The notes: a model not told the origin generated them from the letters alone. A stretch of DNA of 64,000 nucleotides from Pseudomonadota bacterium (GCA_030523245.1 JAUNIW010000003.1:1023-65022); one strand, 5' to 3'; shown: positions 9,087 to 28,859, counted from the first letter of the stretch. Numbers and translations: made by a program.

Positions 9087-10430
9087 ATGGATAATAAAAC
9101 AATTTATGCCTTATCTACGGTTTTTGGTAAGTCCGGAGTAGCGGTAATTCGAATTTCCGGTACAAAGGCATTTGATGTTATTTCTAAAATGACGAATTAT
9201 TCGTCGGACAAGGTTGTTGACAGAAAAATGTATTTGTCAAAATTTTGTAATCCTGTTTCACGTGAAACATTAGATAATTCTCTTTTTGTTTTTTTTAGGG
9301 CGCCGGCGTCTTTTACGGGAGAGGATACGGTAGAAATAAATTGTCATGGTTCAAAAGCTGTTATTCGAAGTTTTTTGGATGCTTTATCTTTGCTGCCGGA
9401 TTTTCGTCTTGCCGAACCCGGTGAGTTTTCGCGTCGGGCTTTTTATAATGGAAAAATAGATTTAACAAAAGCCGAAGCTTTGGCTGATTTGATTGAGGCT
9501 GAAACGGCTATGCAGCAAAAAGTTGCCTTATCCCAAATGGAAGGGCGTCTTTTTAATTTGTATAATGACTGGCGGACTCGTTTGGTTAGTATGCTTTCTT
9601 ATGTTGAAGCCTATATTGATTTTCCTGATGAAGATATTCCTCAGGACACTGTATTTAAAATAGAGAATGGTGTATTTAAAATTTCAGAAGAAATTAAAGT
9701 GCATTTAGAATCCAATAATGTTGAAGAAAGATTGCGTGACGGGTTTAAAGTTGTTATTGCCGGTCCGACAAATGCCGGAAAGTCCAGTTTGATAAATGCT
9801 ATTGTTAAACGCAATGTTGCAATTGTTTCTGATGTTGCCGGTACAACACGGGATATTATAGATGCTTATGTGGATTTGAACGGCTTACCTGTGATTTTTT
9901 CTGATACGGCCGGTTTGCGGGAAACGGAAGATGTTGTCGAACAAATCGGTGTTGAGTTAGCTAAAGATAAAATTTCTCAGGCTGACTTTTGTCTGTTTAT
10001 GTTTGATGCCGAAAAAAATTCTCCGGATATTTTTGCCGAATATACTGAAACCTTACAAGTACCGTATTTGTTTGTCGCAAATAAAATGGATAAGATTTCA
10101 GCCGCGCGGCAAAAAGAGCTGGAAAAAGAAAATTGTATTTTAATTTCTGCCAAAGAAAACCAAAATATTTCTGTTTTGACGACGAAAATTTCTGAAAGCT
10201 TCCAAAATATTTATATGAAAAGCGCGACAGCTTTAATAACGCGTCAACGCTATAAAGAGGCTCTGGACGAATGCCTGACGTGTCTGAGGGAGTTTTCGTT
10301 ACATAAAGATATTGAACTGGCTGCCGAAGATATTCGTCTGGCCTGTCGGGCAATCGGTAAAATTACGGGGCAGGTTGAAGTTGATGAAATTTTAGATAAA
10401 ATATTTAGTAATTTCTGTATCGGTAAATAG
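9087..10430 (+). CDS. mnmE: tRNA modification GTPase MnmE (TrmE)
   Basis: G-domain GPTNAGKSSL...DTAGLR...NKMD, N-terminal TrmE domain and the characteristic C-terminal CIGK. Confidence 0.95.
   Translation: MDNKTIYALSTVFGKSGVAVIRISGTKAFDVISKMTNYSSDKVVDRKMYLSKFCNPVSRETLDNSLFVFFRAPASFTGEDTVEINCHGSKAVIRSFLDALSLLPDFRLAEPGEFSRRAFYNGKIDLTKAEALADLIEAETAMQQKVALSQMEGRLFNLYNDWRTRLVSMLSYVEAYIDFPDEDIPQDTVFKIENGVFKISEEIKVHLESNNVEERLRDGFKVVIAGPTNAGKSSLINAIVKRNVAIVSDVAGTTRDIIDAYVDLNGLPVIFSDTAGLRETEDVVEQIGVELAKDKISQADFCLFMFDAEKNSPDIFAEYTETLQVPYLFVANKMDKISAARQKELEKENCILISAKENQNISVLTTKISESFQNIYMKSATALITRQRYKEALDECLTCLREFSLHKDIELAAEDIRLACRAIGKITGQVEVDEILDKIFSNFCIGK
9254..9269. promoter_or_regulatory. parS: parS centromere site, perfect TGTTTCACGTGAAACA
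   Basis: Exact 16-bp palindrome identical to the canonical ParB-binding consensus. It lies inside mnmE, encoding VSRET. Confidence 0.85.
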
Positions 10431-10548
10431 GAATCGCTGTATTTAAAATCTGAATTTGCTAAATACAGTGTATTTAAATAAGGAATTTATTTGCATTTAA
10501 TTTTTAAATATGATTTAGTAAATGAAAATAAAATAAAGAGATAAGAAA

Positions 10549-12393
10549 ATGAATAGTTTGTACGATGTGATTGTTGTCGGCGGCGGTCATGCCGGTTGTG
10601 AGGCTTGTGCTGCTGCGGCACGAACAGGAGCCAAAACTTTGTTGGTAACACATAAGATTTCATCTATTGGTGAAATGTCTTGTAATCCGGCTATCGGCGG
10701 ATTAGGAAAAGGTCATCTGGTTCGGGAGGTTGATGCGCTTGATGGTTTAATGGGACGGGTTATTGATAAAGCCGGTATTCAGTTCCGAATGTTGAATCTT
10801 TCAAAAGGCGCTGCTGTCCGCGGGCCAAGGGCTCAGGCTGATCGGGAGCTTTATAAAAAATATATGCAGGAGGCTTTGCATGAAACGGCAAATCTTGATT
10901 TAAAAGAAGGTGCTGTTGAAGGTTTGCTGTTAAGAGATAATGTAATTTGCGGCGTGATGCTGGCTGATGGTTCCGAAATCTTTTCTAAAGCTGTTATTTT
11001 AACCACGGGAACATTTTTAAATGGTGTTATGTTTACAGGACATCAAACCAGCGTGGGCGGCCGTGTCGGAGATATTTCCTGCACGGGAATAACACCGTAT
11101 TTAAAAACTTTGGGCTTGAATATAGGACGTTTGAAAACCGGAACGCCGTCGCGATTAAACGGTCGTACCATAAATTGGGATATTTTAGAAAAACAATCCG
11201 GTGATAAAAATCCGATACCTTTCTCTTTTTTAACGGAGAAGCTGAATAACCGTCAGATAGACTGCGGCATTACTTATACAAACGAACAGACCCATAAAAT
11301 TATTCGTGATAATTTTTCTAAATGCGCCTTGTTTTCCGGTTTGATTACCGGAATCGGTCCGCGTTATTGTCCGAGTATTGAAGACAAATTGGTTCGGTTT
11401 GCCGACCGAACTTCTCATCAGATTTTTTTGGAGCCCGAAGGTTATGATACGGATGTTGTTTATCCAAATGGTATATCAACATCCTTGCCGGCTGATGTGC
11501 AGGACGCATTTATTCATACGATGAAAGGACTCGAAAATGTCGAGATTCTGCGTTTTGCCTATGCTATAGAATATGATTTTGTTAATCCGCAGGAACTGGA
11601 TCATTGTCTTGCCGTTAAGAAAACAAAAGGGTTGTATCTGGCCGGACAGATAAATGGGACGACCGGATATGAAGAGGCTGCCGCGCAAGGTTTGTTAGCT
11701 GGTGTTAATGCGGCATTGTTTGCGCTTAACCGGCATAGAGAATTTAAAATTGACCGCAGTCAGGGATATATCGGCGTTATGGTTGATGACTTGATTACAA
11801 AAGGCGTGGATGAGCCATACCGTATGTTTACATCCCGTTCGGAATATCGACTGTTGTTGCGGGCAGATAATGCGGATGCGCGTTTAACGGAGCTGGGATA
11901 TAATATTGGCTGCGTTTCGAATGACAGATACACTGTATTTAAAGAAAAAGAAGAAAAAATAAAACAATTTGATGAGTTTTGTTCCGATAAAATTATCTCA
12001 TATCCGGAAATTGAACAGCAAAATATTTCTGTAAAGCATAATGGGAAGAAAACCTTAAAAGACTTAATGGGATATCAAAATGTTTCACGTGAAACAATCT
12101 CAAAATTATGTCCTGAAATCAGTTCTGTAGATGAGCAAATTTATGAGCAGGTTGAAATAAATGCAAAATATGCCGGCTATCTGAAACGGGAATACGAAGA
12201 TATCGCTGTATTTAAACGAGATGAAAATCTGCAAATACGCGAAGATATCGACTATAATAAAATTGGCGGATTGTCTACGGAAATGATTCAACGTTTTTCA
12301 AGAGTTAAACCGAAAACAATAGGCGAAGCTTCTCGGATAAAAGGTGTAACACCGGCTGCTGTTACCGCTTTATTGGGGTATTTGAAAAAATGA
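10549..12393 (+). CDS. mnmG: tRNA uridine 5-carboxymethylaminomethyl modification enzyme MnmG (GidA)
   Basis: FAD motif DVIVVGGGHAGCEA, SCNPAIGG, and a 614-aa length with a GidA-type C-terminus. Confidence 0.95.
   Translation: MNSLYDVIVVGGGHAGCEACAAAARTGAKTLLVTHKISSIGEMSCNPAIGGLGKGHLVREVDALDGLMGRVIDKAGIQFRMLNLSKGAAVRGPRAQADRELYKKYMQEALHETANLDLKEGAVEGLLLRDNVICGVMLADGSEIFSKAVILTTGTFLNGVMFTGHQTSVGGRVGDISCTGITPYLKTLGLNIGRLKTGTPSRLNGRTINWDILEKQSGDKNPIPFSFLTEKLNNRQIDCGITYTNEQTHKIIRDNFSKCALFSGLITGIGPRYCPSIEDKLVRFADRTSHQIFLEPEGYDTDVVYPNGISTSLPADVQDAFIHTMKGLENVEILRFAYAIEYDFVNPQELDHCLAVKKTKGLYLAGQINGTTGYEEAAAQGLLAGVNAALFALNRHREFKIDRSQGYIGVMVDDLITKGVDEPYRMFTSRSEYRLLLRADNADARLTELGYNIGCVSNDRYTVFKEKEEKIKQFDEFCSDKIISYPEIEQQNISVKHNGKKTLKDLMGYQNVSRETISKLCPEISSVDEQIYEQVEINAKYAGYLKREYEDIAVFKRDENLQIREDIDYNKIGGLSTEMIQRFSRVKPKTIGEASRIKGVTPAAVTALLGYLKK
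12081..12096. promoter_or_regulatory. parS: parS centromere site, perfect TGTTTCACGTGAAACA
   Basis: Exact 16-bp palindrome inside mnmG, encoding VSRET. Confidence 0.85.
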
Positions 12394-13235
12394 CAAACAT
12401 ACAGCATTGTTCATATCATTCCCATACAAATTTTTCAGATGGGGCAAATACTCTGGAAGAGATGGTTGAAAAGGCAAAGCAAATAGGGTTTTGCGAACTT
12501 GGAATCAGTGATCATCTGATTGTTCATAAAAATATGTCTGCAAGTTTGTCCGCGCCGATGTGGTATAAAAGAGGTCATGAGCATATTTATAATAATGATT
12601 TTAAAAAGATATTGCCGGCATATCAGAAACATTGTGATGAAATCCGGAAATTTAGCCGTCTCAGCGGATTCAAAATATATGTTGGTTTTGAGGTTGATTT
12701 TTTTACTTATGCGGGGTGGCTCGATGAATTAAGAGATTTTTTGAGCAAGCTGGACTATGATTATCTTATTTCCGGAAATCATATGCTTTTTGATGAAGAT
12801 TGCCAACAATTGTTTGATTTAAATGATTTGCCTCTGTTATATCCGGATGTGGTGCAGCAGGAAGAATTTTTGCGCAGACATTTTCAGGTAATTAACGAAG
12901 CGGTTAAAAGCGGTGTATTTAAATTTTTAGCGCATTTGGATTATGCTCGAAAATTAGGTGAGGCAATTTGTCCGGCAGATAAGTTCAGACAAGAGAAATT
13001 ACAAATTCTGGATAGTCTGCAAAAGCAAAATATGCCTCTTGAAATCAGCACAAAAGGGTTACGGAAAATAAAAGATTTTTATCCGTGTGATTGGATATTA
13101 ACTGCCGCAAAAGAACGAGAGTTAAAATTTGTTATCAGTGATGATGCGCATGCGGCTGCAGAACTGGGAGACAGATTTAATTTGGCCGAAGAGGCATTGC
13201 GAAAGCATAATATTTTTAATCGGCTAAAGTTTTAG
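12390..13235 (+). CDS. PHP-domain phosphoesterase (HisJ-type histidinol-phosphatase family)
   Basis: N-terminal YHSHTNFSDG metal-binding motif, later ISDH and DDAH motifs, and a length of about 280 aa. ATGA overlap with mnmG. Confidence 0.7.
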   Translation: MTNIQHCSYHSHTNFSDGANTLEEMVEKAKQIGFCELGISDHLIVHKNMSASLSAPMWYKRGHEHIYNNDFKKILPAYQKHCDEIRKFSRLSGFKIYVGFEVDFFTYAGWLDELRDFLSKLDYDYLISGNHMLFDEDCQQLFDLNDLPLLYPDVVQQEEFLRRHFQVINEAVKSGVFKFLAHLDYARKLGEAICPADKFRQEKLQILDSLQKQNMPLEISTKGLRKIKDFYPCDWILTAAKERELKFVISDDAHAAAELGDRFNLAEEALRKHNIFNRLKF

Positions 13236-13299
13236 TTAATAAAAAATATATTTCCTTGCATGGCGGCCGAATCTGACATACTCTCTAAATGAGGTGAAT

Positions 13300-13929
13300 A
13301 TGAGTTTTGATGAAGATGTTTTAAACTATGATGTTTCACGTGAAACACTGCAAAAAATAAAAGATTTTATGCAGATACTTTTGGAATGGAATAAAAAAAT
13401 CAATCTCATCAGTAAAAATTCCGAAACAGAACTGGAATACCGTCATGTTTTAGATTCGCTGCAACTGATAAAATATGTGCCGGCAGACGCGCGGCTGTTG
13501 TTGGATGTGGGGAGTGGTTCCGGTTTTCCGGGGATTATACTGGCTATCGCTTTACAGGAAAAAAATCCTCAGGCGAAAGTTGTGTTGATAGAAAGTATAA
13601 CAAAAAAATCAGTGTATTTAAAAGATGTATGCCATCGGCTTTCGTTGTCTAATGTCGAAGTCATAAATAATCGGGTTGAAAACATTGTATTTAAAAAGGT
13701 GGATTGTATAACGGCTCGCGCGGTAGCGGCTGTTGATAAACTTTTGGGGTTTATTGCCCACTGTTGTACGGAAAAAACAAAGGTTGTTTTACTGAAGGGA
13801 AAAACAGGAGAAGAAGAACTAACCGCTGCAGCAAAAAATTGGCAGTATAAAATAGAAGTTTATGAAAACGCATACTCTGAACAAAACGGATATGTTTATT
13901 GTATGACAGATATAAGGAAAAGAAAATGA
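13300..13929 (+). CDS. rsmG: 16S rRNA (guanine527-N7)-methyltransferase RsmG (GidB)
   Basis: SAM motif LDVGSGSGFPGIILAI and DVSRETL near the N-terminus. The ATG at 13300 is preferred over the GTG at 13294 because GAGG lies 5 nt upstream. Confidence 0.9.
   Translation: MSFDEDVLNYDVSRETLQKIKDFMQILLEWNKKINLISKNSETELEYRHVLDSLQLIKYVPADARLLLDVGSGSGFPGIILAIALQEKNPQAKVVLIESITKKSVYLKDVCHRLSLSNVEVINNRVENIVFKKVDCITARAVAAVDKLLGFIAHCCTEKTKVVLLKGKTGEEELTAAAKNWQYKIEVYENAYSEQNGYVYCMTDIRKRK
13332..13347. promoter_or_regulatory. parS: parS centromere site, perfect TGTTTCACGTGAAACA
   Basis: Exact 16-bp palindrome inside rsmG, encoding VSRET. Confidence 0.85.
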
Positions 13930-14693
13930 AGATAATTTCAGTAGCGAATCGTAAGGGTGGTGTTGGCAAAACAACGACAACAATCAATATTGCCACAGCT
14001 TTGTCCGCCATAGAAAAACGTGTTTTGGTTATTGATTTTGATCCGCAGGGGAATGCGACGACATCAATGGGAATTCCAAAACAAAAAGAACATTATTCTT
14101 CTTATGATGTCTTGATTGGCAAATGTAATGTAAAAGAAGCTGTTTTGCACACGGATTTACCGCGTTTTGACATGATTCCGTCTTCGCCGGATCTGGCCGC
14201 TGCCGAAATCGAACTGGTCGAGGTCGAAAGACGCGAATATGTTTTGAAAAAAGCGTTGAGTCGTCTGGAATCCGTTTATGATTATGTTCTGATTGACTGT
14301 CCGCCCTCTCTCAATCTGATAACCATCAATGCGTTGGTCAGTTCAAATTCGGTTATGGTACCGCTGCAGTGTGAATTTCTCGCACTGGAAGGCTTGGCCG
14401 ATTTAATGAAAAACATCAATGCTATCAAACGTAATTTCAATCCTGCTCTGACGCTGCAGGGAATTATTTTGACGATGTACAGCAAGCAAAATAATTTAAG
14501 CCAGATGATTGAGGCGGATGTCCGCAAATATTTCGGCGACAAGGTTTATCAGACGGTTATTCCGCGAAGTGTCCGTATTGCCGAAGCACCGTCACATGGC
14601 AAGCCGATTTTGATATATGATTTAAAAAGTTCGGGGGCGCAGGCTTATATCCAGCTTGCAAAAGAAGTTCTAAAAAGAGAAAAGGAGTTATAA
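13926..14693 (+). CDS. parA: Chromosome partitioning ATPase ParA (Soj)
   Basis: Deviant Walker A NRKGGVGKTTT and ParA-type Walker B VLIDCPPS. The ATG at 13926 forms an ATGA overlap with the rsmG stop; the track start at 13899 lies inside rsmG. Confidence 0.93.
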   Translation: MKIISVANRKGGVGKTTTTINIATALSAIEKRVLVIDFDPQGNATTSMGIPKQKEHYSSYDVLIGKCNVKEAVLHTDLPRFDMIPSSPDLAAAEIELVEVERREYVLKKALSRLESVYDYVLIDCPPSLNLITINALVSSNSVMVPLQCEFLALEGLADLMKNINAIKRNFNPALTLQGIILTMYSKQNNLSQMIEADVRKYFGDKVYQTVIPRSVRIAEAPSHGKPILIYDLKSSGAQAYIQLAKEVLKREKEL

Positions 14694-15605
14694 ATGAGTG
14701 CAAACAGTAAATTCGGTTTAGGGCGGGGACTCGAAGCTCTGCTTGGAGATGACGAAATAAATTTGAATTTGGACGATGAAAATACCGATGTCAGCAATTT
14801 TGTAAATGACACAGTATTTAAAGCCAAAGAGACGAATGAAATCGAAATAGAAAAAATCAGACCTTGTGCTTTTCAGCCGCGCACGGAGTTTGACAGAGAC
14901 GCTTTGGAATCTTTGGCTCAGTCCGTTCGCGAAAAAGGTATTTTGCAGCCTTTATTGCTGCGCCAAAAAGACAATGAATATGAAATCATTGCCGGTGAGC
15001 GTCGCTGGAGGGCGGCACAGCTTGCCGGATTAAAAACCGTTCCGGCCGTAATTAAGAATCTGACGGACAGCGAAACGCTTGAAATAGCCCTGATTGAAAA
15101 TCTGCAACGCGAAAATTTGTCTGCCATAGAAGAGGCAGAAGGGCTGAACAGATTGATGCAGGAGTATGAATATACGCAGGAAGTTATCGGAAAGGTTATC
15201 GGTAAATCCCGCAGCTATATAGCCAATACTCTGCGGCTTCTCGGTTTACCGGAAGAAGTAAAACAGCTTGTCAAAAATAATAAGCTTTCAGCCGGACATG
15301 CCCGTGCTTTAATCGGCTGCGATAATGCTGTTGAATTGGCAGAAAAAATTGTCAAAGACGGTTTAAGTGTTCGCGAAACAGAAGCTTTGGCTTCAAATGC
15401 CAAAAACATAGCCGTCAAAGAAATTATGCCTAAAGCGCCTAAACCCGTTGATATGGATTTAGAAAAAATAATGGAAGACTTGCAAGAAAGATTAAAACTA
15501 AAAGTTAAAATAAATGCTGGTAAAAAAGGTAAAGGTAGTATAACATTACATTACAACACACCTGCAGAGCTAAGCTCGATTTTGGATATTTTAGAACAAC
15601 GATAG
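14694..15605 (+). CDS. parB: Chromosome partitioning protein ParB (Spo0J)
   Basis: ParB box GERRWRAA, an HTH region, GLGRGLEALL at the N-terminus and a 303-aa length. Confidence 0.95.
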   Translation: MSANSKFGLGRGLEALLGDDEINLNLDDENTDVSNFVNDTVFKAKETNEIEIEKIRPCAFQPRTEFDRDALESLAQSVREKGILQPLLLRQKDNEYEIIAGERRWRAAQLAGLKTVPAVIKNLTDSETLEIALIENLQRENLSAIEEAEGLNRLMQEYEYTQEVIGKVIGKSRSYIANTLRLLGLPEEVKQLVKNNKLSAGHARALIGCDNAVELAEKIVKDGLSVRETEALASNAKNIAVKEIMPKAPKPVDMDLEKIMEDLQERLKLKVKINAGKKGKGSITLHYNTPAELSSILDILEQR

Positions 15606-19382: not shown

Positions 19383-20318
19383 ATGAAGCTGGCATTTTTT
19401 CAAATTATCTGGAAAACCTTAATTCTGATAGAAAACACGTTTTCATATTGGCGGACATATATGTTTTATGCTTTGCTGATAACCATAATTTCAGCCGGTT
19501 TGGGACAGTGGGGTTTATCCTGCATGACAAATCAGGATAAAGCATGGTGCTTTATCTCAATGCAGGATATAAATTTTTGGTCGTTTTTTTATGTTTTGAA
19601 TTTATGCTTAAAAATATTTATATGGCTGTTATTCTGCTATGTTTTATATGAGGAAATGATTCATCGGCAAAAGATGAGTTTTTGGGAAATTAAAAACTTT
19701 AATAAAGGAAGTATATATAAAATAGCGGCGCTGTTTATATCTGCTTTTCTTTTTGTGGTGCCGATAGCCGCAGCTTTTATTATTTTTACCAAAAAAGCAA
19801 ATCCGGATTGGCGGATAGAAGCCGTTTGGTTTTTGATAACGTTTATCTGTTGCTGGCTTCCGTTTTTGGTTTTGCGTTTTTCGGCAGGGATAAGTTATGT
19901 TTTAGACAAGCAGGAACTGCCGCCTTTTAAAAAAATATGGGTGACGACGGAAAATAATAATTTTAAAATTATCTTTGCTTTTTGTCTTTTTCTTTTGATT
20001 ATGAATATTTTTGAGTTGCGTGTTTCTTCTTTTCTGAAAGATTTTTATAAAACCTATAAAAATTTTGTCGTTGCTTTTGGTGTGGAATTTTTGAATAATT
20101 TGGTGAATTTGGTGATTGTTTCCGGATTTTTGATGTTAACCCGCGCTTTACAACTGCTCATCCTGCCGGAAAATCCGAGTCCGCAGGAAGCACCAGCAAA
20201 GCCTTTGCCGCAAAAAAATGATACAGCGGAGCGCAAAACAGAAAAAACAGCCTCAGGAGTCAAAAAAACGGCAAAGAAATCAAAATCAACTAAAACGAAA
20301 AAAAATAAGAAAATATAA
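19383..20318 (+). CDS. Polytopic membrane protein with Lys-rich C-terminal tail, hypothetical
   Basis: Starts 1 nt after the dnaE stop. Has several Trp/Phe-rich hydrophobic segments. The last ~55 aa are P/K/T-rich (KKTAKKSKSTKTKKNKKI). Confidence 0.6.
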   Translation: MKLAFFQIIWKTLILIENTFSYWRTYMFYALLITIISAGLGQWGLSCMTNQDKAWCFISMQDINFWSFFYVLNLCLKIFIWLLFCYVLYEEMIHRQKMSFWEIKNFNKGSIYKIAALFISAFLFVVPIAAAFIIFTKKANPDWRIEAVWFLITFICCWLPFLVLRFSAGISYVLDKQELPPFKKIWVTTENNNFKIIFAFCLFLLIMNIFELRVSSFLKDFYKTYKNFVVAFGVEFLNNLVNLVIVSGFLMLTRALQLLILPENPSPQEAPAKPLPQKNDTAERKTEKTASGVKKTAKKSKSTKTKKNKKI

Positions 20319-20329
20319 AAAACAGATAT

Positions 20330-20460
20330 CCGCCACTAAAGCGGAGGGTGTCCATCTGCTATGAACCTCACGGTTTGACCACGCTCGTTGGCGTGGAACG
20401 GTGTCCAACGACACCTTTGCGTTCAGCCACCGATAAATCAGGGGTTTTCTGTAAGGCAAC
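20330..20460 (+). ncRNA. Candidate structured small RNA or cis element (unclassified); strand assignment tentative
   Basis: Markedly GC-richer than its surroundings. Hairpins are CCGC/GCGG (20330-20344), CCACGC-TCGTTG-GCGTGG (20379-20396) and GGTGTC-CAAC-GACACC (20400-20415). The 7-mer GGTGTCC is duplicated at 20347 and 20400. A terminator follows at 20465. Confidence 0.3.
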
Positions 20461-20464
20461 TAAT

Positions 20465-20497
20465 AAAAAAGTTTTCCGTTGAAAGGAAAACTTTTTT
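20465..20497. terminator. Bidirectional rho-independent terminator between convergent genes
   Basis: A-run, then GTTTTCC-GTTGAAA-GGAAAAC hairpin, then a T-run at 20492-20497. It would serve both the + strand unit and the minus-strand coupling-protein operon. Confidence 0.75.
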
Positions 20498-20569: not shown

Positions 20570-22789
20570 TTAAGCTACAGGTTCATCAGCTTCAAAATTA
20601 TTATCGCCCTCTTCAGTGTCCGGATCATATTCAATTCCCAGTTTTGCCAGCATATCATCGTTGATATCTTCACGCTGGGCCACAATCCAATCCGGCACAT
20701 TCGGGCAAGGCGGAATTTTAGCCATTTTTTTCATTTTAGGGTCAAGATACCAACGCGGCGAATCGGCAATAATCGGGCGGTCGATATAACTTTGCATCAA
20801 AATAACCTGTTTCAACATCGGCAGACTTAACAATTGTGTCGAGCTGATAACCGGTACGCCTTGTAATTGATAGTTAACGTTTTTAGCCAATGGGTTAAAG
20901 TCTTTTCCCAGACTGCCTTCAGTTCGGGAGAAAGAAGAAACCTCAATAGTCTTATTACCAATCATCTTGGAAAAGCGTTGGGCGGTAACTTCGTTATTTT
21001 GGGATAAAATGATTTTGCAGGCCGTTGTGGAAATAACGGTTTCCAAATCATCTTTACCATATTTTCCGGAGATTTGGCCTAAATCTTGTCCGATTAAAAG
21101 ATAAGAAACTTTTTGTCCGCGGCCGACGGCAGGTCCGTCAATAATGGCTTTCATTTTAGGCATTTGCGGAAACTCGTCCAGAATAAACAGGGCAGGGAAC
21201 GGCCCCATTTTACCGTCTGTACGGTTAACGTGATTTGGCGGATTGGAAATAAGATAAGATGACATCAATTCAATAAATGTACTGCTGATAACACCCAAAG
21301 CCCGAGCATCAACCTGGTTTACGGAAAGATAAACGGAAATCGGTTTCCAGACACCGGTTACCGGATCTTTCATGCCGCGCAAATCTTTAAATTGAATATC
21401 CGAGAAGCTTGTACGCGCTTTAACGGCTTGGTTCTTGAAACATCCGATACCGGCAAAAGCGGTGGAAAGTACGGAGCCGCGCTCTTTATCAGGCATACTG
21501 CTTAAAGAACTGAGTTCTGTAATACAGCGTTGGGAATAGCCAAAATTACGAGCTTCTTTAACAGCTTCTTCCAACATGTCATGAGTCGGATCAGCCATGG
21601 CAGCCATCTGGTCACCTTCATCCATTCGCCGTTGTATTTCTTGCGCCGCGTTAATCTGAGCTTCGGTAATCCATTCCATAATCATGGCAATACAGGCTTC
21701 ACGTCCCATCCAGCGTGACGGCAGCAAATTCCAGGTTCCGATTGGCAGATAATTTTCAATAGTCAGTGTGCCGTTTTTCAGATTCTGGATAGCACGGGGT
21801 GCAGCCGGATCACGCATTTCCATATAATAGCTTTCCAAGACTTCTTTGTCTTTAGCATCCAGCTTTCCTTCGTAAATACGACCGATAAAATAATCATTTG
21901 CACGGGCGCGGTCACATTTTGAGGCCACAAAGTTAATAAAGCCGGTCAGGGCAGCACGGCCGGTATTAGCCCAGTGCGGGTCAGCACCGCCTTTCGGGTC
22001 TTCTACCAGAATATTGCACATAGAATCGACATACATATCACGATCAGGGCCCGCTTCCGGCATAGAATTCGGTGACAACGGATTCCAGCTCGGATAATAG
22101 ATACCTTCGCTCGGATTATCTTCCGCACCCCAGTTGATAATAAAGACGGGACCGACTTTGGCTCGTGCACCGCTGGTTGAATAACAAAGTTCCGGTTTCG
22201 GGTCATTTACGATAATGCTCAAACCATCGGAATTGAAAATTGTCGGGATAACAACGCCGGCAGTTTTACCGGTACCCGGAGGTGCGCAGCAAAGGGTAGA
22301 CAGCGTTTCTTTTAACATTAAGAAGCGTCCTTTGAATTTGCCGACGACCTGACAAAAGCCGTCAAAGCCGAGCAAGGCCATTTTGTTAATATCCCTCAGT
22401 TCTGCTATTCGTGCCGAACCCTGAGTATTTAATTGGAATTTATACGGGCTGAGCAGAGAGCCGACAATCAAACCGACCGGAATTGTAATAAACGGCAGAA
22501 TCGGAAGCCACAAGCTGAGTGAAAAAGATCCTTTGTAATGAATAAGTTGTTTAAACCATTTAACATACATAGCCCATAAGTGGTCCGGTTTTTCGACAAT
22601 AAGTGCCAGAAATTTATTTATCATATCAAAGGAAGCCTTTGATACACCATGACCAACCAGATATGATAAAGGCAGTGCAAATATAAAGAGTGCTACTGTT
22701 AATCCCAAACAGATAAAGAATGTAATCAACATCCAGTGGACGGCATTGTCATATTCTTTCCATTCTTCTCCACGTTCTTTTAAAGCCAT
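20570..22789 (-). CDS. virD4: Type IV secretion coupling protein (VirD4/TraG family ATPase)
   Basis: N-terminal TM helices; Walker A CCAPPGTGKTAGVVIPT; family motif GGADPHWANTGRAALTGF; Walker B LFILDEFPQMP. 739 aa and intact. SD GAGG lies upstream of the ATG at 22789. Confidence 0.85.
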   Translation of the reverse strand: MALKERGEEWKEYDNAVHWMLITFFICLGLTVALFIFALPLSYLVGHGVSKASFDMINKFLALIVEKPDHLWAMYVKWFKQLIHYKGSFSLSLWLPILPFITIPVGLIVGSLLSPYKFQLNTQGSARIAELRDINKMALLGFDGFCQVVGKFKGRFLMLKETLSTLCCAPPGTGKTAGVVIPTIFNSDGLSIIVNDPKPELCYSTSGARAKVGPVFIINWGAEDNPSEGIYYPSWNPLSPNSMPEAGPDRDMYVDSMCNILVEDPKGGADPHWANTGRAALTGFINFVASKCDRARANDYFIGRIYEGKLDAKDKEVLESYYMEMRDPAAPRAIQNLKNGTLTIENYLPIGTWNLLPSRWMGREACIAMIMEWITEAQINAAQEIQRRMDEGDQMAAMADPTHDMLEEAVKEARNFGYSQRCITELSSLSSMPDKERGSVLSTAFAGIGCFKNQAVKARTSFSDIQFKDLRGMKDPVTGVWKPISVYLSVNQVDARALGVISSTFIELMSSYLISNPPNHVNRTDGKMGPFPALFILDEFPQMPKMKAIIDGPAVGRGQKVSYLLIGQDLGQISGKYGKDDLETVISTTACKIILSQNNEVTAQRFSKMIGNKTIEVSSFSRTEGSLGKDFNPLAKNVNYQLQGVPVISSTQLLSLPMLKQVILMQSYIDRPIIADSPRWYLDPKMKKMAKIPPCPNVPDWIVAQREDINDDMLAKLGIEYDPDTEEGDNNFEADEPVA

Positions 22790-22797
22790 TTTATCCT

Positions 22798-24228
22798 CTA
22801 CTTAATATTTTTCAGAACTTTGCGTAAACGATTAAGCTCTTTAGTGTCAATTTGCTCATCGGCTTCATCAATTGTCTTTGAAAACAGCCTTATTTCTTTT
22901 GGTGCGCCGCGATTGATGCGGGTGACATCAATATCCATATTATTCCAAACTTCAAACATATCATCAGCGTTGATAATATTAGCCATTTGAATAATAACAT
23001 ACGATTTGATTTCTTGTTCAAATTCTTCTTCAGCCAGTTTATCACGAATAATATTACGTGCAACATCTAATTTACGGACCGGTGAAATGCGGTGGCTGTT
23101 TTCAGAAAACCACAAAGGTTCTTCGCCGTTAAACAGTTCTTCGTCAGCCAGCCAGTCACCGGCTTCTTTATCTACCAGACACAGGCAGATTTCTGTTTCG
23201 GAAACACCGATGAAGTCAATGATTGTATTACCGACATGAATGCCGTTGATAACATCATAACCTTTTTGTTGCAAAATTTCCAGAACAGGACTGCGCGGCT
23301 GGGTATTAGCCGGAGATTCATCGGAAATATTATTATCGGTCCGGTTGCGGTTTTGCTTATCTGTGCGGTTATCTTTATTTTGTTTGCCGTTTTTGTTGCG
23401 ATTGTCTTTGGAATCGCGTTTATTTTTAGGCGAAGAATAATCATCATCTTCATCATCATAGGAAGACTTTGAATTTTTGCGACTGTTTTCTGTATTATCT
23501 TTTTTATTTTTACGAGGTTTTGCCGGTACGTCCTCATCCTCGTCCTCATCATCCGCGACAGGTTTAGACTTTTGTGGTTTTTTCTTCAAAATATCGGTTT
23601 TTTCAAAAGAATCGATATCTAAATCAAAGTCATCTTCGTCATCGTCAAATTTGAACAAGGCATGGTCAATAGCTGCCGGCACAACATTTTTCTTGGCAGC
23701 CGGTGTTGGTGCAGGCTGAGCCGGTCCTGCTGTACGAATTTGTGAAGGCATGGCAGCAACAGAAACGGCAGCCGGCGCGGAATTACCGTCGGCATAATCG
23801 GAAATCGGCATTCTGAAACCGCCGACGCCTGCCGGCCGGATTTGTTTATATGATTTCTTTTTGACCACACCATATTTATTGTTTGTTTTAATAACATTGA
23901 TTGGTGCTTTTATTAAACGCCGGTAAAGCGTAACCGGAAACATAACGGCATCATAAATGAGACGCTCCCATTCAACCATGCAAAGAGTCCACCATCCCGT
24001 AATAAGCATCGGGAAGAAAGTAACCAAGATGATGACAAAAGCCCATTCTTTCGGCGCGCGGATAACCCAGCCGGCTTTCCATAAAGCATAAGCCTGCCGC
24101 CAGTGATCCGGCCAAAAAATATCAAAGTGCCAGTTGCAGAGCATAATAACGCGGATACCTTCAATGAAGACAATGCTCCACAGGCAGCCGACGATGATTA
24201 TTCTTGCAAAGACAATTAAGGATTTCAC
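22798..24228 (-). CDS. Operon orf4: membrane protein with long charged low-complexity linker and NERD/PD-(D/E)XK-like C-terminal domain
   Basis: GTG start with GGAG upstream. About 100 aa of W-rich TM domain, then about 200 aa of P/A-rich followed by D/E/K/N/R-rich sequence. The C-terminal 164 aa (22801-23292) follow a NERD-like pattern (IIDFIGVSETEICLCLVDKEAGDW...SPVRKL). Confidence 0.6.
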   Translation of the reverse strand: MKSLIVFARIIIVGCLWSIVFIEGIRVIMLCNWHFDIFWPDHWRQAYALWKAGWVIRAPKEWAFVIILVTFFPMLITGWWTLCMVEWERLIYDAVMFPVTLYRRLIKAPINVIKTNNKYGVVKKKSYKQIRPAGVGGFRMPISDYADGNSAPAAVSVAAMPSQIRTAGPAQPAPTPAAKKNVVPAAIDHALFKFDDDEDDFDLDIDSFEKTDILKKKPQKSKPVADDEDEDEDVPAKPRKNKKDNTENSRKNSKSSYDDEDDDYSSPKNKRDSKDNRNKNGKQNKDNRTDKQNRNRTDNNISDESPANTQPRSPVLEILQQKGYDVINGIHVGNTIIDFIGVSETEICLCLVDKEAGDWLADEELFNGEEPLWFSENSHRISPVRKLDVARNIIRDKLAEEEFEQEIKSYVIIQMANIINADDMFEVWNNMDIDVTRINRGAPKEIRLFSKTIDEADEQIDTKELNRLRKVLKNIK

Positions 24229-24282
24229 CCGCTTTACTCCAGTTCTTTCTTTTTAATATAACCCGAATTTATAAAGAGATTG

Positions 24283-24771
24283 TTAATTGATTTCATTTTC
24301 TATCTTCTCTATAATTTCTTTCCGGAATTTTGCCGTATCGGTTTTCGGAATTTTTTTGTTTTCCTGTTCTATACGTTCCTGAACAAGTTGTTCTATGGTT
24401 TTTTTCTCTTCTACTTTCAGATTTTTAATATTTACTTCCGGCATCCCGCCATTATATTTGCCCAGTCCGATATTCGAGAGCCAGCTTAAAGGTTTTGAAA
24501 TAAGTTTCAGATAAGAATATTTTGCCAAGAACTTCCAGCCGATGAATACAACCGGAAAATAAGTAAACATACCGAAAATCATCAGCAAATCTCCTGATTT
24601 CAGAATGCCGCCGTTATTCCAGAAATTCCCGATTGTTTTATAAGTTAAAGGCGATACAATATCTATCTGATAAAAATAAAAGAACACAAACTGATATAAT
24701 AGCAGTAAGGCAACGCTCCAAACGCTGCCGGCTGCCAAAACGCAAATATAATGGAGCAGTTTTTTTATCAT
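24283..24771 (-). CDS. Operon orf3: small membrane protein, paralogous to the N-terminal domain of orf4
   Basis: ATGA overlap with orf2. Residues 1-80 align almost without gaps to orf4 residues 1-80 (GxxWS, DIxxP, WxxG, T[FY]FPxxxxGW). The C-terminal tail is E/K-rich. Confidence 0.6.
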   Translation of the reverse strand: MIKKLLHYICVLAAGSVWSVALLLLYQFVFFYFYQIDIVSPLTYKTIGNFWNNGGILKSGDLLMIFGMFTYFPVVFIGWKFLAKYSYLKLISKPLSWLSNIGLGKYNGGMPEVNIKNLKVEEKKTIEQLVQERIEQENKKIPKTDTAKFRKEIIEKIENEIN

Positions 24772-26735
24772 CGGCCGGATTTATCCTTTATATTGCTGTA
24801 AATCTGGTTGACAACATTATTTGTTTTTTGTGAGAAATTCTCAAAAGATTTACTGCCGAAAACTTTATCTTTCCACTCATTGAGTCTTTGTTTTCTGGCT
24901 TGTACATCTTCTCTTGACATAGAATTTTCGGCTTTGATGGCTTCAAGTTGTCCGGCAGCCGCTTCAATAGGCGATTGGGTGTTCATTTCGCGTGCGGCCG
25001 AATTCAAATCATGAGGCTGCTCTCTTTTATAAGTATCGTAGATGAGGGCATCTCCTAATTTATCCATATCTGAAAGTCTTGAGAATTCTTTGTAACTTTT
25101 CTTTGATTCGTCAGATAAAGGTTTGTTTGAATTAGATTCTTCTTGAGCGGCATTTTTATCCAAATCAACAGACAGATGTTGCCGGCAGTCTTCGATTCTT
25201 TCCATATATGATGTCAGATAAGCTGCGGTAAAATCAGCCTTTTTCTGTTCAATTTGTTTAGGATCGGTTATGCCTTCTTTTTTCATTCTTAATTCTACAT
25301 ACAATGCACCTTTTTCCAGATTTTCCTGCAGTTCGATTTTTCTCTTCAGCGTTCTTTTTTGCAGGTCGGCATGTACTTCTGCATCACTCAAATCAAGGGT
25401 TTGTTCTATCTTTCCCTTATTTGCTTTTTCATAAATAAAGTCAACAGCAGCAGCCGTACTGCTCAGACGGTCGATTGTGCTGTTGACCTGCTGAACTTGG
25501 TCAGAATTTTTTAATAGAGAGTCGATTTTGTTTTTCAATTGCTGCGGATTAGCTTTATATTCCTGCTTTAATTTCTCAACAAAAGAGTTTGCCTGAGGGT
25601 TGTTCATATCAATTTGCTGCCATTGGGCATTCGGATTGCCCAGATTCCGGCTGATTTCATTCCACATAGCACGGCGCTGATTGTTCGAAGCTTCATATTG
25701 GTTATGCAGTTGTGCCGGACTTTGGAATAGAATCTTCCGACCTTTTTGAGCAAAGTCTTCTGAATTCTGTTTTTTCTGGTTTTGCTTTGCTTTTTGCATT
25801 TTATTAAAATTTTTAAGAGATTTTTCGCAAAGAGCATCAACACCGGCACAGGCCAATCCGACTGATTTATTGATGGTCCAGCTCAAAGCAGCCAAAAACC
25901 ATTCATTATACATATATTCAATAATATCTTGTTCTCTGATTCGGCTGCCTTCATAACCGCTGCCTTTTTTCTTGTCTTCTTCCGGAGCATCTTCAACAGT
26001 GGCTTCGTTTATATCGTCTTTATTTTCAGGTTTTTGTTCTGTTTTGACTTTTAAAGCTTCTTTTTGTTTTAAATTCACTTTCAACGGAGCCTTTTCCTGC
26101 CCGCCGACTTGTAAACCGTTTTCCTCATCATTGACGGATACATGCAACGCATTGGATTTGCCGTTTCTGCCAAGAGGATTTGAATTTCCGTCGGCATCTC
26201 TGGTAACACTGAGAAGTGCAATATTTTCAATTGTTTCCCCTTTTGCATTTGGCTGATTCATCGGTACGCCGAGTTCTTCCATTTTTGCAAGGGCGTCCGT
26301 ATATTTTTCATGGTTTTGTTGAAATATCTGCTGGTCACTTTCCGGCAGATTCGGGTCAGGTGCGCGGTCAATATTTGCTTTATCATAGGCGGCAACAGCC
26401 TGTTTTGCTACAAAAGAAGCGAAAGTTTCACCGTCTTCGGGATTTTGGGAGCTTAAAAAAGCTTCTAATTGGGCGCTGTCAATAAGACCGTAAGCTTCCA
26501 TGCTTTTTAATTTTTGCAGAGTTGTCATCATTTTATCAACAGGAACCAGTCCCATGCTTTTTTCATCTTTGGCTCTGGGCGGAAAAGTGTGTTTTATAAA
26601 TTCTTCGGAATTCAATAAATTCGGGGCCTTATTGATAATTGCGGCAAGATCTTCTATGGAGGCATCATTTTTAAGCGCTTCAAAAAATTCGGCAACAACT
26701 TTTTTTTCGTCCAGTTGTTTAATATCCTCAGCCAT
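24768..26735 (-). CDS. Operon orf2: large hypothetical protein (~655 aa) with Q/N/K/E-rich coiled-coil C-terminal half
   Basis: The ATG at 26735 is preferred because AAGGAG lies 8 nt upstream; the track start is 26768. No family recognised. Confidence 0.6.
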   Translation of the reverse strand: MAEDIKQLDEKKVVAEFFEALKNDASIEDLAAIINKAPNLLNSEEFIKHTFPPRAKDEKSMGLVPVDKMMTTLQKLKSMEAYGLIDSAQLEAFLSSQNPEDGETFASFVAKQAVAAYDKANIDRAPDPNLPESDQQIFQQNHEKYTDALAKMEELGVPMNQPNAKGETIENIALLSVTRDADGNSNPLGRNGKSNALHVSVNDEENGLQVGGQEKAPLKVNLKQKEALKVKTEQKPENKDDINEATVEDAPEEDKKKGSGYEGSRIREQDIIEYMYNEWFLAALSWTINKSVGLACAGVDALCEKSLKNFNKMQKAKQNQKKQNSEDFAQKGRKILFQSPAQLHNQYEASNNQRRAMWNEISRNLGNPNAQWQQIDMNNPQANSFVEKLKQEYKANPQQLKNKIDSLLKNSDQVQQVNSTIDRLSSTAAAVDFIYEKANKGKIEQTLDLSDAEVHADLQKRTLKRKIELQENLEKGALYVELRMKKEGITDPKQIEQKKADFTAAYLTSYMERIEDCRQHLSVDLDKNAAQEESNSNKPLSDESKKSYKEFSRLSDMDKLGDALIYDTYKREQPHDLNSAAREMNTQSPIEAAAGQLEAIKAENSMSREDVQARKQRLNEWKDKVFGSKSFENFSQKTNNVVNQIYSNIKDKSGR

Positions 26736-26808
26736 CTTTATTACTCCTTTATAAATATATGATATCAATATACCATAAAAAAATATTTTTGTCTATATTG
26801 TTTTTTAA

Positions 26809-27783
26809 CTAAACTTTGAGTCTTTTCAAAAAGTTACCGATTTCCAAATTGATGCGGATACCGTCCTGAGGCGTCACTTTCAACAATCCGAACCAGCGCG
26901 GTTTGATTTTACTGAAATCAATCGGCGCAAAAATAGCCGGATTTGTGGTCAGAGCCTGAAAGGCACCGTTTACATCTTTTTGTGCCACACGGAAATAATT
27001 GCTTATAAGGCGGTCGGCATCGACCGGAAAATTCTTTTGGGCCAATGCTTCGGTAAATTTGCGTTGTCTTTCTTTTCGGGCCAGATATTCTTCATACATC
27101 AGGCGTTTAATGTGTTTTTCCTGATATTTTATAAATTTGGCCTGATAAGACAATTCGCAGCTTTCGATATCAATCAGGATTTCAACATAAGAGATAACAG
27201 CCAGTTGTAAATCTGCATTCGGAAGATTTTCAGCCAGATTCAATAAGGCTTCATCTGACGATTTAAGCGGAAAATTTCCGAGTTCCTTTGGAAACATTTT
27301 TGTCAGCAGCAGCCACCCGTTGACAACATCGTCAGACAGAATTTTACCGGTGCTGGGTTTATAATTCGGATACAAATCATCAATTTCAAAAGAACATTGA
27401 TACGATTCGTTTAAATAAATACCCGCCAGTTTGTTTACGGAATTATAAAAATTTAAAAAGGCCTGAGCCAGTTCCGATTCGTCACTGCCGAGCATCGGCT
27501 GGTTTTGACTCTCCTGAGCTTCCGTTTTGGCATCTTGAAGCGATGAAACCAAAGCAGCATCCAGATCTTCATCGGTTATTGTGGCGTTAATCTCCTGTCC
27601 TTCCGGACTGAGCTGGGCAGCATAGTCAACAACCTCGGTATCATTATTTTTGGCCGGCATGTTTGAAACATGAGTATTCTCGTCCGTAGCGGAGCTGTCC
27701 GGTTCATCATCTCCGGCATCATTGATAAAGCTGTTAAGCAGTTTTTCAAAATCATCATCTTCTAAAATATCATTATCAGCCAT
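26809..27783 (-). CDS. Operon orf1: hypothetical protein (~324 aa) with strongly acidic N-terminus
   Basis: The ATG at 27783 (MADNDILEDDDFEKLL) is preceded by AGGAG. The track ORF extends to 28221, but that part runs antisense through rluD and is unlikely to be translated. Confidence 0.6.
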   Translation of the reverse strand: MADNDILEDDDFEKLLNSFINDAGDDEPDSSATDENTHVSNMPAKNNDTEVVDYAAQLSPEGQEINATITDEDLDAALVSSLQDAKTEAQESQNQPMLGSDESELAQAFLNFYNSVNKLAGIYLNESYQCSFEIDDLYPNYKPSTGKILSDDVVNGWLLLTKMFPKELGNFPLKSSDEALLNLAENLPNADLQLAVISYVEILIDIESCELSYQAKFIKYQEKHIKRLMYEEYLARKERQRKFTEALAQKNFPVDADRLISNYFRVAQKDVNGAFQALTTNPAIFAPIDFSKIKPRWFGLLKVTPQDGIRINLEIGNFLKRLKV

Positions 27784-27847
27784 TTTTTTCTCCTGAAATC
27801 GGATAAAATCTTTGACTTGCATTTGCGGGCAAGACTTATTAAGGTGC

Positions 27848-27855
27848 ATTATAAT
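27848..27855. promoter_or_regulatory. Palindromic ATTATAAT giving a TATAAT -10 hexamer on both strands of the divergent intergenic region
   Basis: Sits in the 98-bp gap between orf1 (minus) and rluD (plus). No convincing -35 on either side. A nearby 5-bp inverted repeat CTTGC...GCAAG lies at 27816-27833. Confidence 0.3.
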
Positions 27856-27881
27856 ACACTGATACTTAAAAAAGGCTAAAA

Positions 27882-28859
27882 ATGAATAACGAAGAAACAA
27901 TATATTCAACTCCCGAAGCGTCTCCGGCCGATAAAAATTTACGTCTGGATAAATTTTTGGCGCAAAATCTGCCGGATTTTTCCCGTTCACAGCTGCAGCG
28001 TCTGATAGCGGAGGGCAATGTTTTACAAGACGATATCGTGATATCGGATAATGCTTATAAAGTAAAAACGGGCGATGTTTTTCAGATAAGCGTACCGCCG
28101 GCAGCCGAAGCAGAACCGCCGGCGGAGGATATTCCGTTAAATATTGTTTATGAAGATGAAGACTTGCTGGTTGTAAACAAGCCGGCCGGAATGACGGTTC
28201 ATCCGGCAGCCGGTGTTTCACGTGGAACGCTTGTTAATGCTCTTTTATACCATTGTCGGAACAGTTTGTCCGGAATCGGCGGCATCAAACGCCCCGGCAT
28301 TGTTCACCGGATTGACAGGGAAACCAGTGGTTTGCTTGTTGTTGCCAAAAATGATGCCGCCCATCGGTTTTTGAGTGAGCAATTTGCCGAACACTCAATC
28401 GAACGGACTTATTTGGCTGTGGTGTACGGGGTTTTGCAACCGCTTAACGGCCGGATTGAAGGTAATATCGGCAGAAGTCCGGCAGACCGTAAGAAAATGG
28501 CGGTCGTGCAAAACGGCGGTAAGTTTGCGGCGACAAATTATAAGACATTGCAAATATTCAAAAAAGCAGCGTCTTTGGTGCAGTGCAATTTGGAAACAGG
28601 CCGGACTCATCAAATTCGCGTACACTTAACAAGTGTAGGAAACCCTCTGATAGGTGACAGCGTTTATGTAAAGAACCGTAAAACGGCTGTGTCCCTGCCG
28701 TCAGAATTGAAAAAATATGTAAACGATTTCCCTCGTCAGGCCTTGCACGCAAAGAGTTTAGGCTTTATTCATCCGCGAACGAAAAATTTTATGCAGTTTG
28801 ATTCTGAACTGCCGGAAGATATGAAAGAACTGCTAGAAAGGCTGATACAATCAAGTTAG
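27882..28859 (+). CDS. rluD: 23S rRNA pseudouridine synthase, RluA family (RluD-like) with N-terminal S4 domain
   Basis: Catalytic motif HRIDRETSGLLVVAK, HQIRVHL, an S4-like N-terminus (LRLDKFLAQ) and a 325-aa length. Confidence 0.9.
   Translation: MNNEETIYSTPEASPADKNLRLDKFLAQNLPDFSRSQLQRLIAEGNVLQDDIVISDNAYKVKTGDVFQISVPPAAEAEPPAEDIPLNIVYEDEDLLVVNKPAGMTVHPAAGVSRGTLVNALLYHCRNSLSGIGGIKRPGIVHRIDRETSGLLVVAKNDAAHRFLSEQFAEHSIERTYLAVVYGVLQPLNGRIEGNIGRSPADRKKMAVVQNGGKFAATNYKTLQIFKKAASLVQCNLETGRTHQIRVHLTSVGNPLIGDSVYVKNRKTAVSLPSELKKYVNDFPRQALHAKSLGFIHPRTKNFMQFDSELPEDMKELLERLIQSS

Follow-up and report, generated by a model that had tools for sequence, protein, structure and literature searches.

A VirD4-type coupling ATPase in a conserved core-chromosome gene module of gut Alphaproteobacteria, a candidate coupling-protein locus of a type IV secretion system

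What is an intact VirD4/TraG-family type IV coupling protein (T4CP) doing among housekeeping genes, in a stretch of chromosome with no channel gene of a type IV secretion system (T4SS)? The question is raised by 64,000 nucleotides from a Pseudomonadota bacterium (GCA_030523245.1, JAUNIW010000003.1:1023-65022), here called the window, with positions counted from its first letter. At 20570-27783 the window carries five minus-strand genes, which we call orf1 to orf4 and the T4CP gene, in that order of reading. The initial annotation had described an orphan T4CP at the end of an operon of unrecognisable proteins, and had offered two explanations: either the four upstream proteins form a new platform for coupling or substrate recruitment, serving a T4SS whose genes lie elsewhere, or the unit is a self-contained module. 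We favour the first, chiefly through the adjacency of VirB6, VirB8 or VirB9 genes in relatives and a repeat common to orf2-slot and VirB6-like proteins; the second has less support. Our best explanation, held with moderate confidence, is that these genes form the coupling-protein module of a T4SS that is carried on the chromosome, is inherited vertically and has some features like those of the rickettsial rvh system, with channel genes scattered elsewhere and an accessory set not homologous to those described.

The T4CP gene (20570-22789, minus strand) encodes 739 aa, and its product is intact, as first described. It matches Pfam T4SS-DNA_transf (E 5e-57; 194.2 bits against a cut-off of 20.1), TraG-D_C (9e-22; 77.8 bits against 22) and TrwB_AAD_bind (1e-16). 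Two N-terminal hydrophobic segments (residues 15-51 and 89-117) predict two transmembrane (TM) helices, and the C-terminal tail is acidic. The Walker A sequence CAPPGTGKT, the NDPKPEL and GADPHW motifs and the Walker B sequence LFILDEFP are invariant among 19 orthologues of 56-89% identity. Scores against NCBIfam equivalogs fall well under cut-off (136 against 250 bits for the CD1115 family, 118 against 728 for PRK13897 VirD4), and the protein belongs to a divergent VirD4/TraG subfamily. Its nearest annotated relatives, at 33% identity, are the final genes of complete virB2-B11/virD4 operons on alphaproteobacterial megaplasmids. A profile search of PDB sequences gave no match up to E 10 because the profile is narrow; the family is not in doubt.

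Upstream of it lie orf4 (22798-24228, 476 aa, GTG start), orf3 (24283-24771, 162 aa), orf2 (24768-26735, 655 aa from an ATG at 26735 behind GGAG; the mechanical open reading frame (ORF) starts with TTG at 26768 and would give 666 aa) and orf1 (26809-27783, 324 aa, ATG at 27783), all on the minus strand. Independent gene calls in two public contigs with an identical orf4 give the same lengths (324/655/162/476/739 aa). Reading of the sequence bears out the tight packing that had been described, with an ATGA overlap of orf2 and orf3 (24768-24771), an 8-nt gap between orf4 and the T4CP gene (22790-22797), and gaps of 54 nt between orf3 and orf4 and 73 nt between orf1 and orf2. The 8-nt gap and 4-nt overlap suggest translational coupling at these junctions, and the spacing suggests that the five genes are co-transcribed as an operon. 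A Shine-Dalgarno-like sequence had been reported for each gene; GGAG or GAGGA does lie 7-10 nt 5' of the orf1, orf2, orf4 and T4CP starts, but orf3 is preceded by a weak AAGGA only.

Both described ends of the unit could be recognised. It starts at a divergent 98-nt spacer (27784-27881), its presumed promoter region, shared with rluD (27882-28859; Pfam S4 and PseudoU_synth_2); no strong minus-strand sigma-70 match was found in this spacer. The best such match of the region, at 10/12, lies instead in the orf1-orf2 gap (26767-26795, minus strand; TAGACA-17-TATATT with TG), and is a consensus match only, in a region where promoter-like matches total no higher than in shuffles. The unit ends at a bidirectional terminator-like hairpin (about 20463-20497; A-run, 11-15 bp stem, T-run), which folds with -15.9 and -16.4 kcal/mol on the two strands (z -6.5 and -6.7; 0/200 shuffles as stable) and is common to the T4CP unit and a convergent membrane-protein gene (19383-20318). 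Between that gene and the terminator is a GC-rich spacer of ~140 nt (20320-20460) that holds a number of short G+C hairpins (z about -2.1). Rfam offered no credible match for this spacer, nor is it conserved across the 80 related genome loci.

Conservation was followed in 80 species-representative genomes, the main comparison set, and in a second set of 80 metagenome loci obtained by scanning contigs with a T4CP profile and mapped with purpose-built hidden Markov models. Close T4CP relatives number in the hundreds and all come from metagenome-assembled genomes (MAGs) of uncultured Alphaproteobacteria of human, ruminant and chicken gut, such as Candidatus Scatocola; we suspect this clade to be GTDB order RF32. 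The gene-neighbourhood check proposed at the outset showed that in the 80 species-level genomes orf1 is followed by a variable orf2 slot and then by orf3, orf4 and the T4CP gene, nearly always adjoining rluD-rpoH, and that at least about 150 related contigs retain the module set. An orf4-like gene stands directly upstream of the orthologous T4CP gene in 80/80 genome loci and 72/80 metagenome loci. The same pair is found in five further MAG contigs of 35-51% GC (L088, L089, L090, L092 and L093), where different housekeeping genes surround it. This orf4-T4CP pair is the sole invariant part of the module.

The coupling protein evolves at the pace of core genes. Its identity to the window's protein is 72-94% across the 80 species genomes, being 92-94% where DnaE is 93-95%, and 72-77% where RpoH is 56-78% (mostly 70-77%). 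For the full-length T4CPs of L089, L092 and L093 the figure is 57-59%, with TypA at 68%. The partners diverge further, to 36-74% for orf4 and 21-72% for orf3 in the 80 genomes. GC content of the module (0.385-0.43) is the same as that of its flanks; GC skew alone is inverted, which the opposite orientation of the genes would lead one to expect. The fixed synteny, core-gene-level conservation and flank-like GC mark a vertically inherited core locus rather than an island, and the core-chromosome setting first proposed is thus upheld, both by the housekeeping flanks in the window and by the recurring position next to rluD-rpoH.

The description of the T4CP as an orphan is true within the 64 kb of the window, but not of the module in relatives. 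Eight contigs of a higher-GC gut lineage (L095, L097, L104, L105, L108, L111, L116 and also L089) carry an orf1 homologue, an orf2-slot protein, two full-length orf4 paralogues, the T4CP, and two further genes, orf6 and orf7. Directly upstream of this module they have two to three tandem, divergent TrbL/VirB6-like genes of 480-870 aa (Pfam TrbL 8.7e-6 and 7.8e-7). In another contig (L099), VirB8 (2e-10), a 71-aa lipoprotein, a second VirB8 (3e-21) and VirB9/CagX (2e-12) are encoded within 6 kb of the module. Relatives with such VirB neighbours have T4CPs of 58-68% identity. Jackhmmer searches of the related loci and the window found VirB6, VirB8 and VirB9 homologues in the higher-GC lineage only. 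We also noted a conserved membrane ORF of 68-95 aa between the VirB6-like paralogues (L104 1235-1441, L105 1264-1470, L108 1048-1302, L111 1610-1897); it has no Pfam match and could be a small subunit like VirB3 or VirB7.

A second connection to the channel comes from the orf2 slot. In the VirB6-linked lineage a repeat in the orf2-slot proteins recurs in the C-terminal extension of the VirB6-like protein encoded next to them (blastp 1e-16 to 1e-19), and these orf2-slot proteins also have, by eye, something like the motif at the centre of the window's orf2. The latter is hydrophilic and hypervariable, with a mostly net-basic C-terminal region and a single conserved motif, KExDIIxYMYxEWFL, at residues ~267-290. 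It is 33-42% identical in the 11 closest loci, where the T4CP is 92-94% identical; beyond these, BLAST cannot recognise it, and mean column identity in its alignment is 14%. The C-terminal G-R of orf2 was considered as a secretion signal and dropped, since it is probably imposed by the overlapping orf3 start and ribosome-binding sequence.

The product of orf1 is soluble. Its short N-terminal motif, DDxFEKLLNxFI (DDDFEKLLNSFI), is acidic and amphipathic, and a disordered acidic linker joins it to a conserved, all-helical C-domain (~95-324). Its AlphaFold2 model, built from 42 orthologues, gives the C-domain a predicted local distance difference test score (pLDDT) of about 85-95, and Foldseek found no structural neighbour in PDB (best E 1.2). 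Orthologues of 34-75% identity occur in 68/80 genome loci, and homologues in the VirB6-linked lineage are detected at E about 1e-37. Paralogy of orf1 and orf2 was ruled out (probability <1%). In one MAG contig (L077 2772-8221) an orf1-orf2 pair is duplicated in tandem (282 aa + 533 aa, twice), which may be real or an assembly artefact.

Four unrecognisable proteins had been reported upstream of the T4CP. They do fall outside the characterised T4SS, conjugation and Dot/Icm adaptor families: none of orf1 to orf4 has a family match at a meaningful level in Pfam, NCBIfam, PADLOC or PDB sequences, none has a curated family, and orf4 has no homologue in 72,556 plasmids. They are, however, not four unrelated proteins. 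Comparison of the orf3 and orf4 profiles with hhalign (probability 98.8%, E 4.9e-17, 104 columns) shows that the N-terminal ~105 residues are paralogous, and orf3 is a truncated paralogue of orf4, the orf3 slot in relatives being filled by a full-length one. In the common domain two helices form a membrane hairpin, the loop of which is Trp-rich (NWHFDIF...HW...GW...KEWAF). In orf3 the hydrophobic segments (5-40 and 59-81) are followed by a short basic helical tail. Homology of the hairpin to the T4CP membrane domain was ruled out (probability <1%).

In orf4 the hairpin (1-110) leads into a basic KKKSYKxIRP motif, an acidic FKFDDDxDDFDLDIDSF motif and a low-complexity linker of variable length, and then into a C-domain of ~165 residues (311-476). 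The AlphaFold2 model has residues 113-310 disordered and the C-domain at pLDDT >90. This domain is the best-conserved part of the protein, with a near-invariant loop GDWLADEExFNxEEPLWFSExSHRxSPV. Its best Foldseek matches in PDB are 1y88, 3fov, EndoMS and Ecl18kI (E 5e-3 to 0.07, probability up to 0.99); the leading ones are PD-(D/E)xK proteins at probability 0.95-0.99, with E values of no better than 5e-3 to 2e-2. Pfam NERD hits orf4 under cut-off (E 0.005), and PF08378 (NERD) is a precomputed annotation of five orf4 orthologues or family members (P0144, P0159, P0215, P0226, P0395). The model thus predicts a NERD-like restriction-endonuclease (PD-(D/E)xK) fold, in keeping with the nuclease-like domain first suspected in this gene. 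The canonical (D/E)xK motif is nevertheless absent: D338 and D353 are nearly invariant, and the third strand reads LVDKE in the window's clade but LDT(T) or VDD(S) in distant members, so that the position of the canonical lysine is not kept. Catalytic activity is therefore doubtful. The acidic-aromatic loop looks more like a binding element, and the C-domain probably binds rather than cleaves.

The orf4 family comprises 420 clusters at 50% identity in an exhaustive profile search. Its C-domain, with a near-identical loop EPGDWLADEERFNDEEPLWFSESSHRVSPV, is also found inside ~1500-aa proteins and an AAA-ATPase protein (P0320, P0335, P0386); by eye, P0320 and P0335 contain TPR repeats, a Ras-like GTPase region and a C-terminal TIR-like domain. 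Its embedding in these proteins suggests that the domain is a portable module for sensing or binding.

T4CPs are typical of conjugative elements, and NERD and PD-(D/E)xK domains are common in defence systems, to which the TPR/GTPase/TIR-like fusions just described may be added. The locus might accordingly be read as the decaying remnant of an integrated conjugative element, or as an anti-phage defence island with a T4CP-like ATPase and a NERD nuclease. We regard this as very improbable, and largely refuted, given the rluD-rpoH position fixed across 80 species, the strong purifying selection on an intact ATPase, and the absence of orf4 homologues from plasmids; neither a relaxase nor an element integrase is present, and there are no repeats and no anomaly in GC content. 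Nor did PADLOC-DB give anything for the T4CP, orf2, orf3 or orf4, its one orf1 match being at chance level (E 0.018).

The module can be larger than the five genes of the window. (i) In the more distant half of the clade a first gene, orf0, precedes the others (L035 5205-5495 and 42 other loci); it encodes ~94 aa with a TM anchor and matches Pfam DUF6476 (4e-9), and is absent from the window and its subgroup. Identity of orf0 with cREM-3, a ~93-aa RvhD4-interacting protein of Rickettsia, was ruled out, as cREM-3 is DUF2671. (ii) After the T4CP gene, orf6 and orf7 are present in 20/80 genome loci and, among the five further contigs, in those long enough to show them, L089, L092 and L093 (for example L035 12244-13312, L051 12252-13290, L089 9846-11372, L092 13631-15107 and L093 13443-14674); the window has neither. 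The orf6 product begins with MWDWS or MWEWS and has a conserved C-domain with HPYHExIHKFID; orf7 encodes ~145-150 aa with weak SUKH/SMI1-KNR4 similarity (E 1.7e-4). The five-gene layout holds for the window, but the ancestral module appears to have been larger, with a DUF6476 gene upstream and two genes downstream in relatives, and within the window itself a promoter-like site precedes orf2.

We propose the following arrangement. The VirD4-type ATPase would act as a hexameric inner-membrane motor, with orf4 and orf3 as lineage-specific membrane partners whose Trp-rich helical hairpins lie beside its membrane domain. These two are the best candidates for direct membrane partners because they are bitopic hairpins like the T4CP anchor, are always adjacent, and are apparently translationally coupled. 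The long flexible linker of orf4, with its acidic-hydrophobic motifs, would tether the cytoplasmic NERD-like domain, probably for binding. We take orf1 as a candidate cytoplasmic helical adaptor with an acidic N-terminal peptide. The fast-evolving orf2 readily suggests itself as a candidate substrate, or else as an exposed component akin to VirB6 C-terminal extensions. The channel itself would be encoded elsewhere in the window's genome.

Several observations weigh against this arrangement. Foldseek against PDB did not show either orf1 or orf4 to have the fold of a known T4SS adaptor, and the adaptor role is put forward from position and conservation. A search of the 10 kb on each side of the module brought up no channel gene in the 80 species loci, in about 150 loci of the window's group in all, or in L092 and L093. 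The contigs with VirB genes have a T4CP only about 59% identical to the window's and are related to its clade via that identity only, and the window's own clade could have lost the channel. An orf4-like subfamily exists apart from any neighbouring T4CP, as described below. Finally, there is the promoter-like site ahead of orf2.

The absence of nearby channel genes, together with a T4CP conserved like an essential core gene, a partner with a nuclease-fold domain and an orf4-T4CP pair that alone is invariant, would also suit an inner-membrane machine independent of any T4SS, in which the VirD4 motor, orf3/orf4 and the NERD-like domain move or process DNA or protein in some housekeeping role. Its logic would be analogous to that of archaeal Ced DNA import, where a T4SS-family ATPase works with unrelated membrane proteins. 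We think this unlikely, as VirB6 paralogues or VirB8/VirB9 are directly adjacent in nine related contigs, the orf2-slot protein is homologous to a VirB6 C-terminal extension, the nuclease-fold domain is without the canonical (D/E)xK, and a Gram-negative cell still needs an outer-membrane route. The stronger form of the idea, that VirD4 persists here as a core gene with no T4SS channel at all, as a new inner-membrane translocase, the VirB linkage of sister lineages being the ancestral state, strikes us as a long shot. Were it true, a whole clade of gut Alphaproteobacteria would keep a new kind of DNA or protein translocase.

The last two objections bear on whether the genes belong together at all. 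The distant orf4-like subfamily (L083 10001-11305, L085 5110-6318, L087 760-2001) has the same architecture, with a C-terminal ILEKAEIPE tail. It is found by itself just 5' of accB-accC in MAGs of other Alphaproteobacteria, and the surrounding 10 kb contain no T4CP gene. Thus orf4-like proteins do not strictly need a neighbouring T4CP. With this, the promoter-like site between orf1 and orf2, and the coming and going of orf0, orf1, orf2, orf6 and orf7 among lineages, one could hold that the T4CP alone belongs to a T4SS and that orf1 to orf4 are unrelated lineage-specific envelope or cytoplasmic proteins, syntenic by chance. We give this little credence. The 8-nt and overlapping junctions suggest translational coupling, and the order orf1, orf2 slot, orf4 paralogues, T4CP persists amid entirely different surroundings, which is hard to explain without functional linkage. 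We retain the coupling-protein module as the preferred explanation.

For the remainder of the window, some 45 genes, every other ORF of at least 130 aa was compared with Pfam, and those with a match are housekeeping genes only; as first stated, there is no T4SS channel gene, pilin or relaxase among them. One flank holds dus, trkA, typA, mnmE, mnmG, a PHP protein, rsmG, parA, parB and dnaE. The other begins with rluD and rpoH and continues with an RND efflux pump, GST, tgt, an ABC exporter, fba and atp genes, then a DsbA-like protein, dciA, a XerC/D-type recombinase, aroK, rph and rdgB, and finally addB, addA, rplQ, a histidine kinase and gloB. The tyrosine recombinase (48534-49451; Pfam Phage_integrase) is this chromosomal XerC/D-type gene, 20 kb off, and not an element integrase.

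Some features of the window deserve separate mention: (i) The mnmE-mnmG-PHP-rsmG-parA-parB cluster (9087-15605), of an origin-proximal type, lies about 5 kb from the module. (ii) The plus strand carries nearly all of the window's genes, with positive GC skew, and the five-gene unit is among few minus-strand blocks. (iii) A 650-aa ORF (6978-8930) without Pfam match has an HExxH-like motif, HELTH; it could be metalloprotease-like and a possible secreted substrate. (iv) A 639-aa ORF (61-1980), also without Pfam match, combines a hydrophobic N-terminal segment with an extended coiled-coil-like stretch.

The interest of the locus is that VirD4 is held in locked synteny with a paralogous membrane pair, a novel helical protein and a hypervariable protein in Alphaproteobacteria of human, ruminant and poultry gut. 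In a gut commensal the system could serve bacterial killing, host interaction or DNA exchange. We found no accessory proteins of this kind for VirD4 in the literature, and nothing relevant there on RF32 secretion, DUF6476 or orphan T4CPs; judged by sequence and model searches, the module partners appear not to be homologous to any described T4SS accessory protein.

Among VirB/VirD4 systems the best annotated match is VirD4 of the Erythrobacter aureus YH-07 megaplasmid, with 33% identity over 97% of length and the same two TM helices, NTPase motifs and T4SS-DNA_transf plus TraG-D_C domains. There, VirD4 follows VirB11 in one operon on the replicon, whereas the window's T4CP follows orf4 in a housekeeping setting.

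The rvh system, called a rickettsial signature, has as hallmarks a multicopy VirB6, duplicated VirB8, VirB9 and VirB4, and no VirB5 (PMC11077975). It is chromosomal, vertically inherited and dispersed in scattered islands, as we propose for the system of this module. Multicopy VirB6 with long extensions is seen in the eight related contigs and not in the window, and the duplicated VirB8 has a counterpart in the two VirB8 paralogues, with one VirB9, of L099. There are also differences: rvh virD4 follows virB8-virB9-virB10-virB11, but an orf4-like gene is what precedes the T4CP gene in the window and all related loci; rvh is not described as having counterparts of orf1-orf4; and the organisms concerned are gut or rumen MAGs labelled Alphaproteobacteria only. 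The data hint at rvh-like features (multicopy VirB6, duplicated VirB8, scattered islands) in such MAGs.

Two comparisons concern single partners. The orf4 C-domain is predicted to share the fold of NERD and PD-(D/E)xK proteins, but differs in its sub-threshold Pfam score, the missing canonical (D/E)xK and a unique acidic-aromatic loop. The orf6/orf7 pair of relatives was compared with the effector-immunity pairs of the Xanthomonas-type bacteria-killing T4SS. SUKH is a fold typical of immunity proteins, and the pair is reminiscent of an effector-immunity or adaptor pair; unlike effector-immunity pairs, it has no recognised toxin domain and is unusually conserved (53% identity between L089 and L092).

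A functional analogy is offered by Dot/Icm, whose coupling complex (DotL-DotM-DotN-IcmS-IcmW-LvgA) uses a membrane partner and small or acidic adaptors to widen substrate recognition. The likeness is one of working principle and not of membership, a T4CP encoded beside a membrane partner and candidate cytoplasmic adaptors. The window's T4CP lacks the long C-terminal extension of DotL, and no homologues of DotM, DotN, IcmS, IcmW or LvgA were found beside it (orf1-orf4 by Pfam and NCBIfam, orf1 and orf4 also by PDB sequence searches and Foldseek). If the partners described here do associate physically in a coupling complex, it would be a second, independently evolved multi-subunit T4CP receptor beside that of Dot/Icm, and would offer a handle on substrate recognition in rvh-like T4SSs.

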